Source: a virus
Taxonomy: Duplodnaviria > Heunggongvirae > Uroviricota > Caudoviricetes
IMG/VR virus record: IMGVR_UViG_2724679236_000005
Span: 1-19,843 of that record
Direction: 5' to 3' (one strand)
Length of the DNA: 19,843 bases
How positions within the stretch are numbered: the first letter of the stretch is position 1; each line of letters begins with the position of its first letter. Shown here one piece after another: positions 1 through 19,843 of this stretch. Under the pieces are notes generated by a model. The model worked only from the letters and a program-made list of their open reading frames with translations. It was not told the DNA's origin and made no database searches. The translations under genes were made by a program, and so were the position numbers.

Positions 1-58
1 CCGTGGAATATATTTTAAGAGAGAACAAAAATTGCAATATGTGGTGGACCCATACAAA
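1..58. repeat. Left arm of a perfect 58-bp terminal inverted repeat (partner 19784-19841)
   Basis: Bases 1-58 are the exact reverse complement of 19784-19841, checked base by base; identity ends at 59/19783. The right arm lies 2 nt inside the window end, so the repeat may extend beyond the left edge. Confidence 0.9.
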
Positions 59-2217: not shown

Positions 2218-3717
2218 TTAGACTGTTTCTTTAAAAAGAGGGGCCAGAGCTTCAACTGTGTAATCATTATTAATGCGGTACATTAACGTAATTGTTTGTG
2301 CCGGGGATTTCGGTCCAAAGTCAACATTAATATAAAGATTACCAGCGGCCAGACTTTCTTTTGTATTTAACTCTTCATCTAACCACGCCCGTCCTCCGTT
2401 AATCGCGCCCTGCTCCTCTAATTTATGCAGATACGCGTTTATCGACTCTACAACGTCTGTTCCGAGGTGCAGGTCTATCGGGCGATCAATAAAATCGGTC
2501 ATCATTGCCCGGGCTATTGAATCTTCAATTACGTCAGCTGTCCGACGAACGCACTCGAAAGACCATTGAGGGCTGAGGCTGCACAGATAGTTACCCCAGT
2601 GCCTAAACCCGTCATAGCGAATAATTGTGCTGACCTGGCTGGCGTTCAACAGGTTCGCTGTGCAGTTTGTCTCACCAATAATAAAATCGTCGACTTGTTC
2701 AAGCCCTGTAACTCCGTAGATATTCTGGTTCGATTTACTCCACCAGAATCCTTTTTCATTATCAATTCTGGCTCGCAAACCAGCAGCGATAGCTGAATAC
2801 GGACGAGATAACCCACTGACATCACTCGTAGAATAAACGCGAGGGCGTAAAATTTCCATCCTGGCGCCATATCTCTGACGACGATTAACAACGTCTGTGG
2901 GTGTAGCGCCTCGCGGTGAATCTATATACCCAACACCGCGTAATTTATTTGTCACGACCTCAAGTTGTTCGGCAATATAATCGTTGGCGCTATAATCAGG
3001 AGCGATTAAAATTCTCGGCGTTACTTGATTTATTTGCGCAGACGTCAATAATGCGTTAATTCCGGTAACGACATTTTTCCTCATTTTTGTTTCGTCGCTG
3101 TCTTCTTCAACGCGAACCACAACAATAATGGCGTCTTCCTGATTTAGTATTTCAGATACAGCAGGCGGGAGGGTACCGTACCACCCGAGCAACTCAGATT
3201 TTTTTTTGCTTCCTGCGATTACCGTCGGAATATTGCATGGGAAAGACTCATCTTTACCACCTGATAAATTTGTTGGAGGAAGGGCGAATACAGTACCCGT
3301 TCCTGCGTGATCACCACCGAAAGTGACATTAATAGATTCTCCCAGTGGAAGACCTTCTTTATATTGCTGATTTTGATCAGCCAGTTTTGACGGTGTAGTC
3401 GCGCCGTCTGTTGTCAATGTTAATTTTCTCGAACCATCGGGTAGCGTGCTATATCCTGGAGTGGCTACACTCCCGTTAATGCCGACATTGACGATTTCGA
3501 CAATCCAGTTGTTTCCGTCGGCCCCTGGCATCACTGTTGAAAACTCAACGAGATTATCTGCGAGTTCTGAACCCCATAATAGAAACGATCTGGCGGCGAT
3601 GCTGGCGTCGGGCGCTGTGCCAACAACACCGATTACTGACACGTCGACGGTGGAAATTTCTTTTGTGCCGTCGTCGTATTCAAGCGTGCGCGGACCGTGC
3701 AAAAAATTAGTGCTCAT
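2218..3717 (-). CDS. Contractile tail sheath protein (P2 FI-like)
   Basis: 499 aa; motifs AAGLRARIDNEKGFWW and IIRYDGFRHWGN match conserved P2 FI sheath segments as recalled; ATG at 3717 with weak SD. Confidence 0.9.
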   Translation of the reverse strand: MSTNFLHGPRTLEYDDGTKEISTVDVSVIGVVGTAPDASIAARSFLLWGSELADNLVEFSTVMPGADGNNWIVEIVNVGINGSVATPGYSTLPDGSRKLTLTTDGATTPSKLADQNQQYKEGLPLGESINVTFGGDHAGTGTVFALPPTNLSGGKDESFPCNIPTVIAGSKKKSELLGWYGTLPPAVSEILNQEDAIIVVVRVEEDSDETKMRKNVVTGINALLTSAQINQVTPRILIAPDYSANDYIAEQLEVVTNKLRGVGYIDSPRGATPTDVVNRRQRYGARMEILRPRVYSTSDVSGLSRPYSAIAAGLRARIDNEKGFWWSKSNQNIYGVTGLEQVDDFIIGETNCTANLLNASQVSTIIRYDGFRHWGNYLCSLSPQWSFECVRRTADVIEDSIARAMMTDFIDRPIDLHLGTDVVESINAYLHKLEEQGAINGGRAWLDEELNTKESLAAGNLYINVDFGPKSPAQTITLMYRINNDYTVEALAPLFKETV

Positions 3718-3728
3718 TTATTTTACTC

Positions 3729-4910
3729 TCAATTAGTTATGCGCCCGTCTGTAACGGTGCCGTAAATGCCACTTTTGGCGTTCTGGAAAACCTGCGCCCC
3801 GTATTTTTCAATGTCTTTCAGATTGGACGTAAATATAACGTCATTATCTATTCCGTCAATATTACACACAACGCAGATATAATCATGCTCATATGAGTTA
3901 AGGGTTCCGTGTTTTTTTGGATAATAAGGTTCCCTTATATTTAGCATTTTTGATATATCCCCGATTGGAATTCGCTGCGCCATCACCAGAGCATCTCCGC
4001 TCGTTGCCGCTAGTGTCATCCATGCGCCGCACAAATAGGTTTCAACATTGGCGTTGACACTGGTTGGGCTTATCGCGTAAGGGGACGCATCGTAACCCGT
4101 CACGATGGCCATCGCAGGAACAACACTGATGTTGTCACCACCATATAACACGACGAGATTAAACGCCCCGTCCCCGTTTGGTTTTGCAAAACCGGAACTA
4201 GTGTTTACATTTCCCGCCGCATCAGGTTGTATATTATTTACTGTGAGAACCGGTTTTGTGCCATTTATATTATTTATATCACCATCAATTTCTAAAAATT
4301 TATTATCCACCTCATCTTTTTTATAATAGTTATTTAAATCAACGCCGAGATTTTCCCGACTGGCCTGTTGCGCCGCCGCGCCTTTATTTTTAATTTCAGA
4401 TAAATTTTTGTTTATCTGCAAATAACGCTTATCGGCATCAGCCTGACTCATTCCACTACTGTTATCAATAACGACATTAACCGTAGACGTGCTGGACACC
4501 GCGAGAGTGTATTTATACGTGATTGATATCAGTGCACCGTTGCTATTCGTCGGTTTTAAAATATCCGGCGAACGCGCAACTGAATATAATTCGCCTTTAT
4601 CGGTTAATATCCCCACCTCGCGGATAGTATAACCGCCGGTTTCCGGCGGTACGTACAGTGTAAAAATGACCTGATTACCGCTATTTTCTGACGATTTAAT
4701 ATTTCCGCGATATGTCTCGTGAATTAATGCTGTTCGTGCCGGGTCCGGTGTTACGTCGTCGTTTCCGTTTGCGTCGCCAATAACGAATTTATTCAGCACC
4801 ACGGGTACACCCGATGCCAGCGCAGCGGCTTCAAGTTGCGCCCCCCGGTCTGTCAGTACCGCATAAACCTGGCTCGCGCTCGCTTTCAGATTTGATTTTA
4901 ATTTAGCCAT
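3729..4910 (-). CDS. Tail fibre protein with P2 gpH-like N-terminal baseplate-attachment domain
   Basis: 393 aa; N-terminal LIHETYRGN...VPPETGGYTIREVGILTDKGELYSVA resembles the P2 H N-terminus; Asn/Ser/Thr-rich middle; C-terminal region not recognisable. Overlaps gpI stop by 8 nt. Confidence 0.8.
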   Translation of the reverse strand: MAKLKSNLKASASQVYAVLTDRGAQLEAAALASGVPVVLNKFVIGDANGNDDVTPDPARTALIHETYRGNIKSSENSGNQVIFTLYVPPETGGYTIREVGILTDKGELYSVARSPDILKPTNSNGALISITYKYTLAVSSTSTVNVVIDNSSGMSQADADKRYLQINKNLSEIKNKGAAAQQASRENLGVDLNNYYKKDEVDNKFLEIDGDINNINGTKPVLTVNNIQPDAAGNVNTSSGFAKPNGDGAFNLVVLYGGDNISVVPAMAIVTGYDASPYAISPTSVNANVETYLCGAWMTLAATSGDALVMAQRIPIGDISKMLNIREPYYPKKHGTLNSYEHDYICVVCNIDGIDNDVIFTSNLKDIEKYGAQVFQNAKSGIYGTVTDGRITN

Positions 4911-16810: not shown

Positions 16811-17050
16811 AGAGAGGCTATCTCCCTTTCAGGACAGGAATCGGGGGCTCGCATCAGGTTCATCAAACTCAACTGTAGCCTCGCGACGTACTTGTTTGCA
16901 TACCTCAGCTTTGTGTATCTGATTATCAGCGTAAGCTTTCACTTTGGCAGCGAGCCATCCTTTTGCGCTGTATCGATAGATTACCGAACAAGTTTTCGAT
17001 ATATGTATATATCTTGAACTTATTGATATCCTTACAGAAAAACAACAGCC

Positions 17051-17311
17051 ATGAGCACACAAAAAATGAACAGAGAAAAAATTGAAGCCTTAATGAGCGT
17101 AATATTAAAAGAAGCTGACCCAAAAAAGTTTCCTGAGAAGTTATCAGAGGACGCCGTCGTATCTTTTTATCGTGCGAACTCCTCTTATCTACATTGTCCA
17201 ACTTTAAGAGAATGGTTAAGCGGCGAAGCAGAGCCTTCAGATGAGATACTTGAGGAGATTATGGTTCAGAACAACTGGCGCGCAACTAAATGGTCAAATC
17301 GGTTACCTTAA
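17051..17311 (+). CDS. Hypothetical small acidic protein (accessory/moron gene)
   Basis: 86-aa ORF opposite in orientation to the flanking late genes, downstream of an AT-rich region (16880-17050); weak SD; no family recognised. Confidence 0.45.
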   Translation: MSTQKMNREKIEALMSVILKEADPKKFPEKLSEDAVVSFYRANSSYLHCPTLREWLSGEAEPSDEILEEIMVQNNWRATKWSNRLP

Positions 17312-17579
17312 CCTGTTGAATGTGTGCCGCCTTGAAACAAAAAGGCGACCTCTCATTTAAGTAAAACGTCTCTTACATCAGGTACCAGCTCTTTGGCACA
17401 TTGCGCAGTTGTTTTTTATACGTCGGCGAGCTGTTGCGAAGCTCAGTCCCTGCGCGTCACACCATTCTTTCGGTGATACACATGATTTGACGTACTCGGA
17501 CAGGAATCGCTTCTGAAGCTCAAGCCCAGTCCCGGTTTGCTCATGTAATTAAATCCTACTGTATTCTCATGGTGCCCAG

Positions 17580-17921
17580 ATGTCGTCTATGCTTTTAACT
17601 CGAACATTCAATGAAGAGAAATGCTCTATGGTTATTGGTATGCAGGAATCAAAAAATTGCCCTGTATGCGGCTCTGATGCCACATGGACAAATCACGATA
17701 CGTGCTGGAAAATTCATTGCAGTGGTTTTTGCGGTGATTTTTTAATCACAACCACTACGATAAATTATCTGAAGGGCGATGCACTAAGGCGTCTTGATGC
17801 CAACGATCTCTTAAGAGAGCCAACAACACTCAAGACACCTTTAACAAACAAAATCCTTGCTGAATATGCTCGTACAAAATATCCCGTGCACATCTTTGAA
17901 GGTCACTATCCGGGCTATTAG
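17580..17921 (+). CDS. Hypothetical Cys-rich (zinc-ribbon-like) protein
   Basis: ORF with CPVCG...C-x4-C-x3-C cluster; more likely start is ATG at 17628 (GAAGAG upstream) than 17580; stop overlaps the convergent minus-strand ORF by 3 nt. Confidence 0.45.
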   Translation: MSSMLLTRTFNEEKCSMVIGMQESKNCPVCGSDATWTNHDTCWKIHCSGFCGDFLITTTTINYLKGDALRRLDANDLLREPTTLKTPLTNKILAEYARTKYPVHIFEGHYPGY

Positions 17922-18196
17922 TCAGTGCTAGTAACTTTCGGAATAGGAGAAATTTTAGATGTGTGATAATTCATCTCGTCGATAGTCTGAGGAATTAACT
18001 CACTCGCGCCATTTGCAACTGCAACGCGATAATGCGGTCCATTCCATCGACTAAAATCGGAGCGTTCATAAATTACCACCTCATCCCCCACAGAAACCCT
18101 TAACTCCGTGCTACCTACGGGTTCAATAGCGGAATTAGAATAAATGTCTTCAACACGACCGTGAAAAGGCCCACCAACGAACAAAAACTGTGACAT
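17918..18196 (-). CDS. Hypothetical protein
   Basis: 92-aa ORF; ATG at 18196 with AGGA 8 nt upstream; no TMD, no recognised motif. Confidence 0.45.
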   Translation of the reverse strand: MSQFLFVGGPFHGRVEDIYSNSAIEPVGSTELRVSVGDEVVIYERSDFSRWNGPHYRVAVANGASELIPQTIDEMNYHTSKISPIPKVTSTD

Positions 18197-18334
18197 ATAA
18201 TTTCCTATTAAAAAATAACCAGTTAAATCGGCATTTAAAAATATGTCATATTTATGATTCTGTCTTTAGCACCTTTGTGTGGTCAGGTTGCCTGGGCCAA
18301 ATGATCAATCATCAATTCATTAAGATAAATTACC

Positions 18335-18529
18335 CTATTTTCCAACAGGGCATGAAGCCACTGCCCCAGTTGAATCAATACAACCACCGTCCGCAGTGGT
18401 AATTTTCGTACCCGGCGCGATCATCACGTGTTTAATACTGCTGCCGTCAGCGCGAGTCGCTTCGGTGTATGTCGAATGTGTGCAGCCTGCCAGCGTGAAG
18501 AACGCGACAGCTAAGAGAAGTTTTTTCAC
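18335..18529 (-). CDS. Small outer-membrane lipoprotein in the lysis cassette (possible o-spanin-like or Bor/Cor-like)
   Basis: 64 aa; GTG start 7 nt after the endolysin stop with AGGT upstream; signal peptide MKKLLLAVAFFTLAG-C with lipobox LAGC and Thr at +2; two further Cys in the mature part. Confidence 0.6.
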   Translation of the reverse strand: MKKLLLAVAFFTLAGCTHSTYTEATRADGSSIKHVMIAPGTKITTADGGCIDSTGAVASCPVGK

Positions 18530-18536
18530 GTTTTAC

Positions 18537-19016
18537 CTACGCTTCTGAGATAGATTTCTCAGCATTCACCAATGGAAGTGATTGTGGAACATCCGTTTGA
18601 CCTGCTGGCCAGCGATAGCCTGTTACGCGGGAACGAGGAAAAGCTTTGATATTTACTTCATCTGCCTGGTTACCACCCAAAATCATTAAATCCCCGGCGG
18701 CATTTTTCCCGACAACAAAGCCAACGTGACCACCGCCAGACCGAGACAGAATAGCAATGCATCCATAGGCGGGTTCCTTCAGTTCATTACCCCAATCGAG
18801 ATAAGAATTCGCAGACTCAAAACGCGTTGAGCGAATACCCGCACGTTCCAGCATTGCCCCGGTGAAAGCAGCGCACCACGGTGTTTCGTCATCCTTAATG
18901 CCGCCGCGTTTGATATCTTTCCAGTACTGCACAATTTCTGCAGCATGTTGCTTCCCTTTCATTTCCCGAATGCCGAGGTTTTTTCGAGCCTCAATTAGCC
19001 ATTTCGGATCGGTCAT
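18537..19016 (-). CDS. Putative endolysin, Cys/His peptidase type (CHAP/NlpC-P60-like, TIGR02594-like)
   Basis: 159 aa; candidate catalytic Cys in ETPWCAAFTG and His in GGGHVGFVVG; no signal peptide or TMD; sits after two membrane proteins. Confidence 0.6.
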   Translation of the reverse strand: MTDPKWLIEARKNLGIREMKGKQHAAEIVQYWKDIKRGGIKDDETPWCAAFTGAMLERAGIRSTRFESANSYLDWGNELKEPAYGCIAILSRSGGGHVGFVVGKNAAGDLMILGGNQADEVNIKAFPRSRVTGYRWPAGQTDVPQSLPLVNAEKSISEA

Positions 19017-19288
19017 TACCTGTCTCCTGTTATTTTTGAAATATTTCCTCGTGCCCGCCAGACAGCAATACAGATGGTGAGATTGAGAAAGAACTCTGCG
19101 GGATCAACCTGCGTATATTTTCCGTATAAAATTCGTAGGGCTATCCAAGCAGCAGACAGAATCGCCAGGTAAGCAGTTAGTGAGATAAAAAAACGATAGC
19201 GGCCTGTTTTTTGAAAAAACATCAACCGTAGTGCCAACATCAGACAGATAATTGCATTGGCATTGATGAGGACAGAGTGCAGGGTCAT
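19016..19288 (-). CDS. Small membrane protein with three predicted TMDs (holin or antiholin-like)
   Basis: 90 aa with three hydrophobic segments; ATG overlaps the upstream stop; directly upstream of the endolysin gene. Confidence 0.5.
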   Translation of the reverse strand: MTLHSVLINANAIICLMLALRLMFFQKTGRYRFFISLTAYLAILSAAWIALRILYGKYTQVDPAEFFLNLTICIAVWRARGNISKITGDR

Positions 19289-19671
19289 TATTTCATCCCC
19301 TTATCTGATTTCCATAAACGAGCTTGTGACATGATCCGCAACAGTGATGTAACGCTGATTACTGATGCAACCAGTGCACCAATGGCGGGAGATACTTTTA
19401 CTGTTATGGGTGGGTTCAGGTGACTCAGCGCCGCATTCAGAATACCGGTAATGATGGCTGATGCTGTTTCAGCGCAATACACACCACCAACAAACGAAAT
19501 GAGTGCGAAAATAACCTGCTTCCAGAATCGATGCTGCCCAGACGACAACACATAGAGAGCTGCGCCTGCCAGCGCACAGATCATCACTGCAGGTGTTGCC
19601 TCAGGAAATAACGCAGCAAACGTCACCCCCGCCGAGCCAGCAGCAACGCCAGCGGTTAGAGGTTCAGACAT
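19288..19671 (-). CDS. Holin-like membrane protein (first gene of the lysis cassette)
   Basis: 127 aa from ATG 19671 (SD AGGA 8 nt upstream), 3-4 hydrophobic helices, charged C-terminal tail. The track ORF to 19839 uses a GTG inside the terminal repeat and is judged an over-extension. Confidence 0.6.
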   Translation of the reverse strand: MSEPLTAGVAAGSAGVTFAALFPEATPAVMICALAGAALYVLSSGQHRFWKQVIFALISFVGGVYCAETASAIITGILNAALSHLNPPITVKVSPAIGALVASVISVTSLLRIMSQARLWKSDKGMK

Positions 19672-19685
19672 GATTTTTCCTGATT

Positions 19686-19715
19686 CAGAAACGACAAAAC
19701 CCCGCCGTGGCGAGG
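19686..19715 (-). terminator. Putative intrinsic terminator/attenuator in the leader upstream of the holin gene
   Basis: Minus-strand RNA CCUCGC-CACG-GCGGGG (6-bp stem with one G-U) followed by UUUUGUCGUUUCUG, ending 14 nt before the holin SD; position analogous to lambda tR' between pR' and S. Confidence 0.35.
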
Positions 19716-19783
19716 TTCTTAGGGATTTGGCAACATACCAAATTAGCGTTAAATATGGCCTATTTTGTTCGGTTTTGCAAGTA

Positions 19784-19841
19784 TTTGTATGGGTCCACCA
19801 CATATTGCAATTTTTGTTCTCTCTTAAAATATATTCCACGG
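19784..19841. repeat. Right arm of the perfect 58-bp terminal inverted repeat (partner 1-58)
   Basis: Exact reverse complement of 1-58; lies in the putative late leader/promoter region upstream of the holin gene. Confidence 0.9.
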
Positions 19842-19843
19842 GT

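Follow-up and report, generated by a model that had tools for sequence, protein, structure and literature searches.

A probable Q82-type late-gene switch beside an IS481-family insertion in a cryptic prophage

What controls the late genes of a prophage whose first lysis gene begins only 172 bp from the end of its assembled sequence? The window, as the whole stretch of DNA analysed here is called (19,843 nt; IMG/VR virus record IMGVR_UViG_2724679236_000005), carries all of its late genes on the minus strand, with the holins and endolysin followed by the terminase, portal, lambda-like head and contractile-tail genes. A preliminary description of this DNA had likened the 172 bp ahead of the holin to the lambda pR'-tR' region, that is, a leader under the control of a Q antiterminator. 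The core of that proposal stands, as the region adjoins Q in related prophages and forms a conserved module; its family and anatomy, however, are those of Q82 and phage 82 and not of lambda. Of the flagged 172 bp, 58 bp (19843-19786) belong to an insertion sequence (IS) and 114 bp (19785-19672) are phage DNA. The latter, read on the minus strand, very probably constitute a cis-acting late-gene switch of a lambdoid-regulated prophage with a Q82-family antiterminator. This reading is based on the adjacency of Q, the conservation of every element, the conserved pairing of the terminator and the published geometry of the phage 82 promoter. The features concerned are listed below with their window positions.

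1-56, plus strand: inverted second copy of the IS end found at 19843-19786
1285 to about 57, minus strand: N-terminal part of the tape-measure gene, cut by the second IS copy
10779-9745, minus strand: major capsid gene, inside the late operon
19016-18537, minus strand: CHAP-domain endolysin gene
19288-19016, minus strand: second holin gene (Phage_holin_3_7)
19671-19288, minus strand: holin-like gene (Phage_holin_8, 127 aa), the first lysis gene, with its ATG at 19671
19681-19678, minus strand: Shine-Dalgarno sequence AGGA of the Phage_holin_8 gene (with the ATG, 19681-19669)
19715-19700, minus strand: stem of a tR'-like intrinsic terminator, with an A/U extension (19719-19696) and a tail to 19687
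19721, minus strand: U at +25, the predicted pause (or at +26)
19740-19729, minus strand: predicted sigma70-dependent pause element TGgTATGTT-GCC (TGgTATGTT at +6 to +14, GCC at +15 to +17)
19745 (T) or 19744 (A), minus strand: predicted transcription start, with GCC set to +15 to +17
19757-19752, minus strand: pR'-like -10 hexamer CATATT, predicted at -12 to -7 and nearly invariant over 18 loci
19774-19758, minus strand: 17-bp promoter spacer AACCGAACAAAATAGGC, a putative Q-binding element (QBE), conserved across genera
19780-19775, minus strand: pR'-like -35 hexamer TTGCAA, predicted at -35 to -30, with TTG and the following A-run invariant over 18 loci
19785-19781, minus strand: AATAC, a 5-bp target-site duplication, whose AA completes the Q stop codon TAA in the uninterrupted phage
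19843-19786, minus strand: inner (3') end of the IS481-family element, comprising the C-terminal transposase codons and the right inverted repeat ...AATTGCAATATGTGGTGGACCCATACA

The insertion sequences and the state of the prophage

The terminal inverted repeat of the preliminary description, whose right arm was thought to overlap the leader, does exist (1-64 and 19778-19841; 58 nt exact, 64 nt at 97%). It consists, however, of the 3' ends of two inverted copies of an IS481-family element and is not a phage feature; it is unrelated to late-gene control and stops at 19786, before the elements of the leader. The extension of the repeat to 64 nt merely reflects similarity between the phage flanks, which read AATACTTG on the right and AACTCTTG on the left. 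The IS sequence was found in 2,727 plasmid records, where it is annotated as an IS481 family transposase, and in 1,407 E. coli genomes. Its ends were taken from a copy on a Salmonella plasmid (L003), in which the left end reads TGTGTAAGTTCAC...ATATTGCAATT and the right end AATTGCAATAT...GGACCCATACA.

The best NCBIfam model for the transposase was transpos_IS481 (NF033577), whose 220 bits fall 4 short of the curated threshold, 224. Two traits characteristic of this family, inverted repeats at the termini and a short target duplication, were found for the copy next to the holin (AATAC) and for the Salmonella plasmid copy (AAACT). The element resembles IS481-family members in its length of about 1.1 kb, its single DDE transposase ORF, its TGT...ACA inverted repeats and its short target duplications. 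Unlike them, it has no stop codon for the transposase within its own boundaries, so that the C-terminus of the protein depends on the flanking DNA. The transposase of the Salmonella plasmid copy stops 8 nt outside the element (...WWTHTKL-stop). In the window, the transposase reading frame was seen to stay open across the promoter, pause site and terminator and to continue without a shift into the holin (19839-19288, minus strand).

Given a 58-nt perfect inverted repeat located exactly at both window ends, the leader might be thought to overlap a true terminal repeat, marking either genome ends or a composite transposon that carries the late genes, with features that serve replication or transposition. 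Two inverted IS copies around 19.7 kb are indeed formally composite-transposon-like. Such an explanation can hardly be correct, as the repeat is formed by the 3' ends of a common element of 1.1 kb, and the right copy was acquired by simple insertion, with duplication of 5 bp, into an otherwise colinear prophage. Phage homology extends up to both IS ends, with the colinear homology to E. coli prophages ending at position 57, and the repeat stops 5 bp ahead of the promoter without overlapping any leader element. Furthermore, the segment of 19.7 kb was found nowhere else among complete genomes of E. coli, viral contigs and metagenome contigs. The tape-measure gene is cut short by the second IS copy to about 409 codons, compared with 546 aa in an intact homologue. 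Both ends of the window lie inside IS copies, which would be the case for a contig of short reads whose assembly breaks at repeats.

The sequence beyond the right end was recovered from chromosome CP117678.1 (locus L031), which was found by an exact-protein look-up of the holin. The IS/phage junction is present there, and no difference from the window occurs in the 4,556 bases that can be compared; the junction was absent from the E. coli complete genomes, viral contigs and metagenome contigs. At this locus the IS is a 1,096-bp simple insertion (2791-3886), preceded by ...GTATAATAC and followed by AATACTTGCAA.... Counted from the predicted start it occupies position -41, separating Q from the promoter, and the Q stop codon is preserved on its far side. 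A Q-like gene had been expected immediately to the right of the window; what adjoins the window is the IS481-family element, and a Q gene is indeed found beyond it, although in a frameshifted form.

The Q gene of CP117678.1 (Q82 family; 2121-2789 of L031) carries a 5-nt deletion in the tandem repeat GGACCGGACC, stops after codon 56 and is a pseudogene. A functional cognate Q in cis, one of the features that define a Q82-type module, is thus lacking at this locus, which leaves the late switch without its activator in cis. The cis elements from -40 to the holin are intact, but the switch is orphaned and the prophage is cryptic. With Q frameshifted and an IS at -41, the late operon would be responsive only to a compatible Q supplied in trans. 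It was also observed that the module persists in this genome although its Q is dead.

The position of the element raises the possibility that the IS itself supplies the promoter of the lysis genes, as an outward or hybrid promoter using the TTGCAA at 19810-19805, which faces the holin, or by read-through from the transposase. The complete copy does contain a continuous transposase-leader-holin ORF of 511 aa (2849-4384 of L031), and ribosomes translating it could mask the terminator. Both of the minus-strand TTGCAA hexamers taken for possible promoter elements in the preliminary description were found, but only that at 19780-19775 is phage DNA and part of the promoter, whereas the other lies inside the IS inverted repeat. 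No acceptable -10 hexamer is located 16-18 bp from the IS-borne hexamer, since CAAATA, ACAAAT and AAATAC all miss the combination A2/T6 when judged by eye and the promoter scan called none. Because the same hexamer occurs in both terminal inverted repeats, it is regarded as a transposase-binding sequence. IS transposases are generally expressed at a very low level, and the phage promoter module is complete without any IS in 444 E. coli genomes, all of which makes a promoter supplied by the IS very unlikely. The IS-borne hybrid promoter was dismissed as it has no -10 hexamer.

The Q82-family gene and the conservation of the module

From 19785 onwards the window is 97% identical to Escherichia phage vB_EcoM-705R4 (hereafter 705R4), in which the gene of protein URC10633.1, annotated as "putative Q antiterminator", stops exactly at the 19785 border and the holin starts 112 nt further on. 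The sequence of 705R4 across the Q stop, which represents the uninterrupted target, reads ...GTATAATGCTTGCAA. The same arrangement of Q stop, 112 nt and holin was found in about 8% of complete E. coli chromosomes (444 of 5,426), ST131 strains included, and in 442 of these the prophage is colinear with the whole phage part of the window (about 92%). Among the contigs encoding an identical holin, seven of eight have this arrangement.

The Q proteins of these relatives matched only Pfam PF06323. This is the Q82 family, one of three unrelated families of Q and the sole one without a solved structure (PMC9388147). A sequence search of the PDB with the Q protein returned no solved relative, and a search of 5.8 billion proteins returned only generically named PF06323 proteins, none of them labelled as phage 82. 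As is characteristic of a Q82-type module, the sequence under discussion adjoins a PF06323 gene upstream and late genes downstream in the relatives.

The module was also found directly after the Q stop in 19 of 21 other loci, covering about a dozen enterobacterial genera. These loci comprised 16 genome loci obtained by a Q-alignment scan with one genome per species, the phages 705R4, yong2 and phiNP, and two further E. coli prophages. Fourteen of the 16 genome loci carry the module, the scan spanning Kluyvera, Citrobacter, Serratia, Buttiauxella, Mixta, Erwinia, Klebsiella and Enterobacter. The order of the elements after Q is CTTGCAAAA, a spacer of the form ..[C/G]AACAAAAT.AG., CATATT, about 14 nt, TTTG.TAT.TTG[C/T]CAAA, 8-12 nt, a GC hairpin and a T-run. 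In the two additional E. coli prophages, the same module accompanies a Q of 50% identity.

Two of the genome loci deviate. In that of Izhakiella australiensis (L016) promoter and spacer are retained, but the pause element has diverged and no hairpin occurs within 60 nt; in that of Enterobacter quasihormaechei (L018) no module is recognisable after Q. On another E. coli chromosome (L023), an ISL3-family transposase gene (2578-3693) is located approximately 385 nt downstream of the Q82-family gene, at the place taken by a methyltransferase gene in the related loci L021 and L022. It represents a further case of an IS inserted close to a late promoter.

Hafnia phage yong2 is of particular value for comparison. 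When the regions 1839-2560 of yong2 (L002) and 3301-4031 of 705R4 (L001) are compared, the Q proteins show only 34% identity, yet over the 59 nt that follow its Q stop yong2 matches the window at 93%. Further downstream yong2 has a different hairpin, CCCGC-CTAGT-GCGGG followed by T6, and then unrelated genes before the holin. In phage phiNP, Q is 51% identical, yet the module is less similar to that of the window than is the module of yong2. The contrast between yong2 and phiNP points either to recombination with its joint at the Q stop or to a binding element that divergent Q82-family proteins have in common.

Promoter, pause element and terminator

A sigma70-type promoter is predicted from TTGCAA-17 bp-CATATT, which is conserved over the 18 aligned loci. 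The numbering used here follows that published for the phage 82 promoter, in which GCC occupies +15 to +17. On this scale, CATATT falls exactly at -12 to -7 and TTGCAA at -35 to -30, and +1 corresponds to 19745. This start is uncertain by 1-2 nt, because the predicted +1 to +3 are TAA and the wild-type 82 transcript starts with AAA (PMC5001585, PMC4914094). It should be noted that a simple promoter scan left TTGCAA-17-CATATT uncalled, the pair agreeing with the consensus at 8 of 12 positions (counted by eye) against a threshold of 9. No alternative promoter-like site was called by the scan between the hairpin and the holin.

The spacer between the two hexamers has the cross-genus consensus AAAA..[C/G]AACAAAAT.AG. 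in the 18-locus alignment, and this degree of conservation is unusual for a promoter spacer. By analogy with phage 82, in which the QBE is located between -35 and -10 and the region from -31 to +30 is sufficient for Q engagement (PMC5001585, PMC4914094), the conserved spacer is a putative QBE that would be bound by the cognate Q. Its invariant positions are candidate QBE bases.

Downstream of the predicted start, the window reads TGG-TATGTT-GCC-AAAT-CCC-T, and TTTG.TA..TG.CA is invariant over the 18 loci. In the above numbering an extended TG would lie at +6/+7, the -10-like TATGTT at +9 to +14 and a U at +25 (19721), about 11 nt downstream of the element. An extended -10-like pause element with its GCC discriminator is thus recognisable from the sequence, and a pause is predicted at this U.

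A conserved dyad, ATTTGgTA-TGT-TGcCAAAT (19743-19725, minus strand; alignment columns 46-64), was observed to overlap the pause element; a fold of the early transcript predicted here gives it a hairpin of 8 bp (+3 to +21). An RNA-helix test showed most of its positions to be invariant and a single pair to covary weakly (G-C, A-U or A.C), which does not allow constraint at the RNA level to be distinguished from constraint at the DNA level.

The GC-rich 6-bp hairpin with a U-rich tail, previously noted about 28 nt before the holin start, is borne out. The core stem CCTCGC/GCGGGG with the loop CACG (19715-19700) has a free energy of -9.0 kcal/mol. Flanking A/U pairs extend it to a 10-bp stem, AGAACCTCGC-CACG-GCGGGGTTTT (19719-19696), at -13.6 kcal/mol. 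The tail after the stem is TTTTGTCGTTTCT (19699-19687, minus strand), its U-tract being interrupted (UUUUGUCGUUUCU), and 28 nt separate the end of the stem from the holin ATG (19671). The hairpin ranked first among 36 terminator-like sites in the whole window, and the region 17000-19843 contains nine such sites compared with 2.6 +/- 1.9 expected.

Folding of the minus-strand leader RNA, which had been proposed as a check, supports the hairpin at the local scale. A local fold of 61 nt around it gave z = -3.1, and no global structure signal was found for the entire 184-nt leader (z = 0.14), so it is the local hairpins alone that stand out. Under both gathering and permissive thresholds the leader matched no Rfam family, with chance-level matches only.

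In the predicted numbering the stem occupies +31 to +46 and the U-tract starts at +47, which places an intrinsic terminator downstream of the predicted pause site, as in other Q82-type modules. The predicted terminated leader RNA would be about 54 nt long, with its 3' end at approximately +53 to +55 (19693-19691).

A hairpin and a T-run are located at the same position in the 18 aligned homologous loci. The sequence of the terminator varies between the loci and its pairing is retained: 88% of the cells in the helix are paired, compared with 37-62% when the 3' partner is slid. Two pairs swap from C-G to G-C, in seven sequences each, and the observed level of covariation was reached by none of 500 shuffles. 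As there are essentially two hairpin types, these compensatory swaps represent few independent events. The terminator hairpins also form the minimum-free-energy structure in six diverse loci. The position of the hairpin and T-run has nevertheless clearly been kept despite sequence turnover between loci.

An intrinsic terminator halts any unmodified polymerase, whichever promoter it comes from. The hairpin could accordingly be a mere terminator of the upstream unit, either the Q/early-right operon or the IS transposase, in which case the late promoter would be elsewhere and the conserved stretch from Q to the hairpin would represent a 3' UTR. In the relatives the hairpin is only about 85 nt past the Q stop, and here no other terminator comes before it once the transposase frame has been passed. 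As a sole role this is unlikely, because the 57 nt from the Q stop to the hairpin are better conserved than Q itself (93% DNA identity vs 34% protein identity in yong2) and resolve into a -35 hexamer, a 17-bp spacer, a -10 hexamer and an extended -10-like repeat with the geometry of the phage 82 pR'. The stretch from the hairpin to the holin, moreover, offers no other promoter-like site. The two roles are not mutually exclusive, and termination of upstream transcripts could accompany the late-leader function.

Proposed mechanism and comparison with known late switches

For the window leader we infer, by analogy with phage 82, a start site, a pause, Q binding and read-through that would operate in the following manner. 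A constitutive sigma70 promoter, TTGCAA-17-CATATT, would start transcription near 19745. The sigma70 retained on the polymerase would re-bind TGgTATGTT at +6 to +14, so that the complex stalls at about +25, and Q bound at the spacer would then load onto the stalled polymerase. Without Q, the polymerase would stop at the hairpin and U-tract (+31 to about +55), giving the short leader RNA. With Q, neither this terminator nor those further inside the operon would stop the polymerase, which would continue into the holin, endolysin, terminase, head and tail genes.

Later terminators of this kind may be those around the major capsid gene. The hairpins that the preliminary description placed on either side of this gene are present, each with a T-run, at 10819-10800 just upstream and 9746-9729 just downstream (minus strand). 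As both are inside the late operon, they fit the need for processive antitermination. They are also consistent with differential expression of the capsid gene.

It is conceivable that the short leader RNA, with a 5' hairpin from the dyad TTTGnTA...TGnCAAA followed by the terminator hairpin and U tail, has a function of its own, either as a trans-acting sRNA similar to StxS or as a nascent-RNA aid to Q82-type loading. Such a role is put forward as an outside chance.

The present analysis provides a base-resolved map of a Q82-family late switch, comprising the -35 hexamer, putative QBE, -10 hexamer, pause element and terminator, which is widespread in Enterobacterales prophages. Q82 is the one Q family of which both the mechanism and the structure are unsolved. 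For annotation purposes, the "terminal inverted repeat" of the window should be treated as an IS artefact and the prophage as cryptic.

Short terminated RNAs from late promoters have been documented in phages lambda, 21, phi80, 82 and P22 (PMC7547250). In Stx phages the leader is 258 nt and is processed to StxS, a 74-nt Hfq-binding sRNA, and the 144-aa Q belongs to another clade (PMC7547250). The leader predicted here resembles that of the Stx pR'-tR' region in being a short RNA, constitutive in lysogens, terminated near the late promoter and located directly after Q. Unlike the Stx leader, it would be only about 54 nt long, and neither sequence similarity nor an Rfam match was found.

The window leader would follow the same logic as the pR'-qut-tR' region of lambda, which yields the 6S RNA: the late promoter is constitutive and comes immediately after Q, a promoter-proximal pause that depends on sigma serves to load Q, an intrinsic terminator precedes the lysis genes, and the late genes form one long operon. 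The dimensions are different. In lambda the pause element occupies +1 to +6 and pausing occurs at +16/17 (PMC5001585), and termination at +193 gives a leader of 194 nt (PMC4914094), whereas the positions predicted here are +9 to +14 for the pause element and +31 to +55 for the terminator, with a leader of about 54 nt. The Q families are also unrelated: none of the Q proteins of the relatives matched PF03589 (Q-lambda), the family that characterises a lambda-type module, and all matched PF06323 only.

Phage 82 offers the closest parallel, as judged from the published description of its pR'. The 82 pR' has a near-consensus -10-like pause-inducing element with an extended -10, GCC at +15 to +17 and an AT-rich stretch, and pausing occurs at +25 (a U) and +26 (PMC5001585). 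The window differs from it in the predicted initial bases (TAA vs AAA), and the Q of its relatives is a diverged member of the family. Two further differences are that the Q stop codon lies only 5 bp from the -35 hexamer and that in this genome an IS stands between the promoter and a frameshifted Q. As in phage 82, on the other hand, the cognate Q of the relatives is a PF06323 protein, an extended -10-like pause element follows the promoter, and the position of GCC, the AT-rich stretch, the U at +25 and a conserved spacer where the QBE of 82 is located are all reproduced; a short terminated leader would also be expected. The leader is thus of the textbook pR'-tR' type, an uncharacterised member of a well-known class of switch, and its biology is ordinary.
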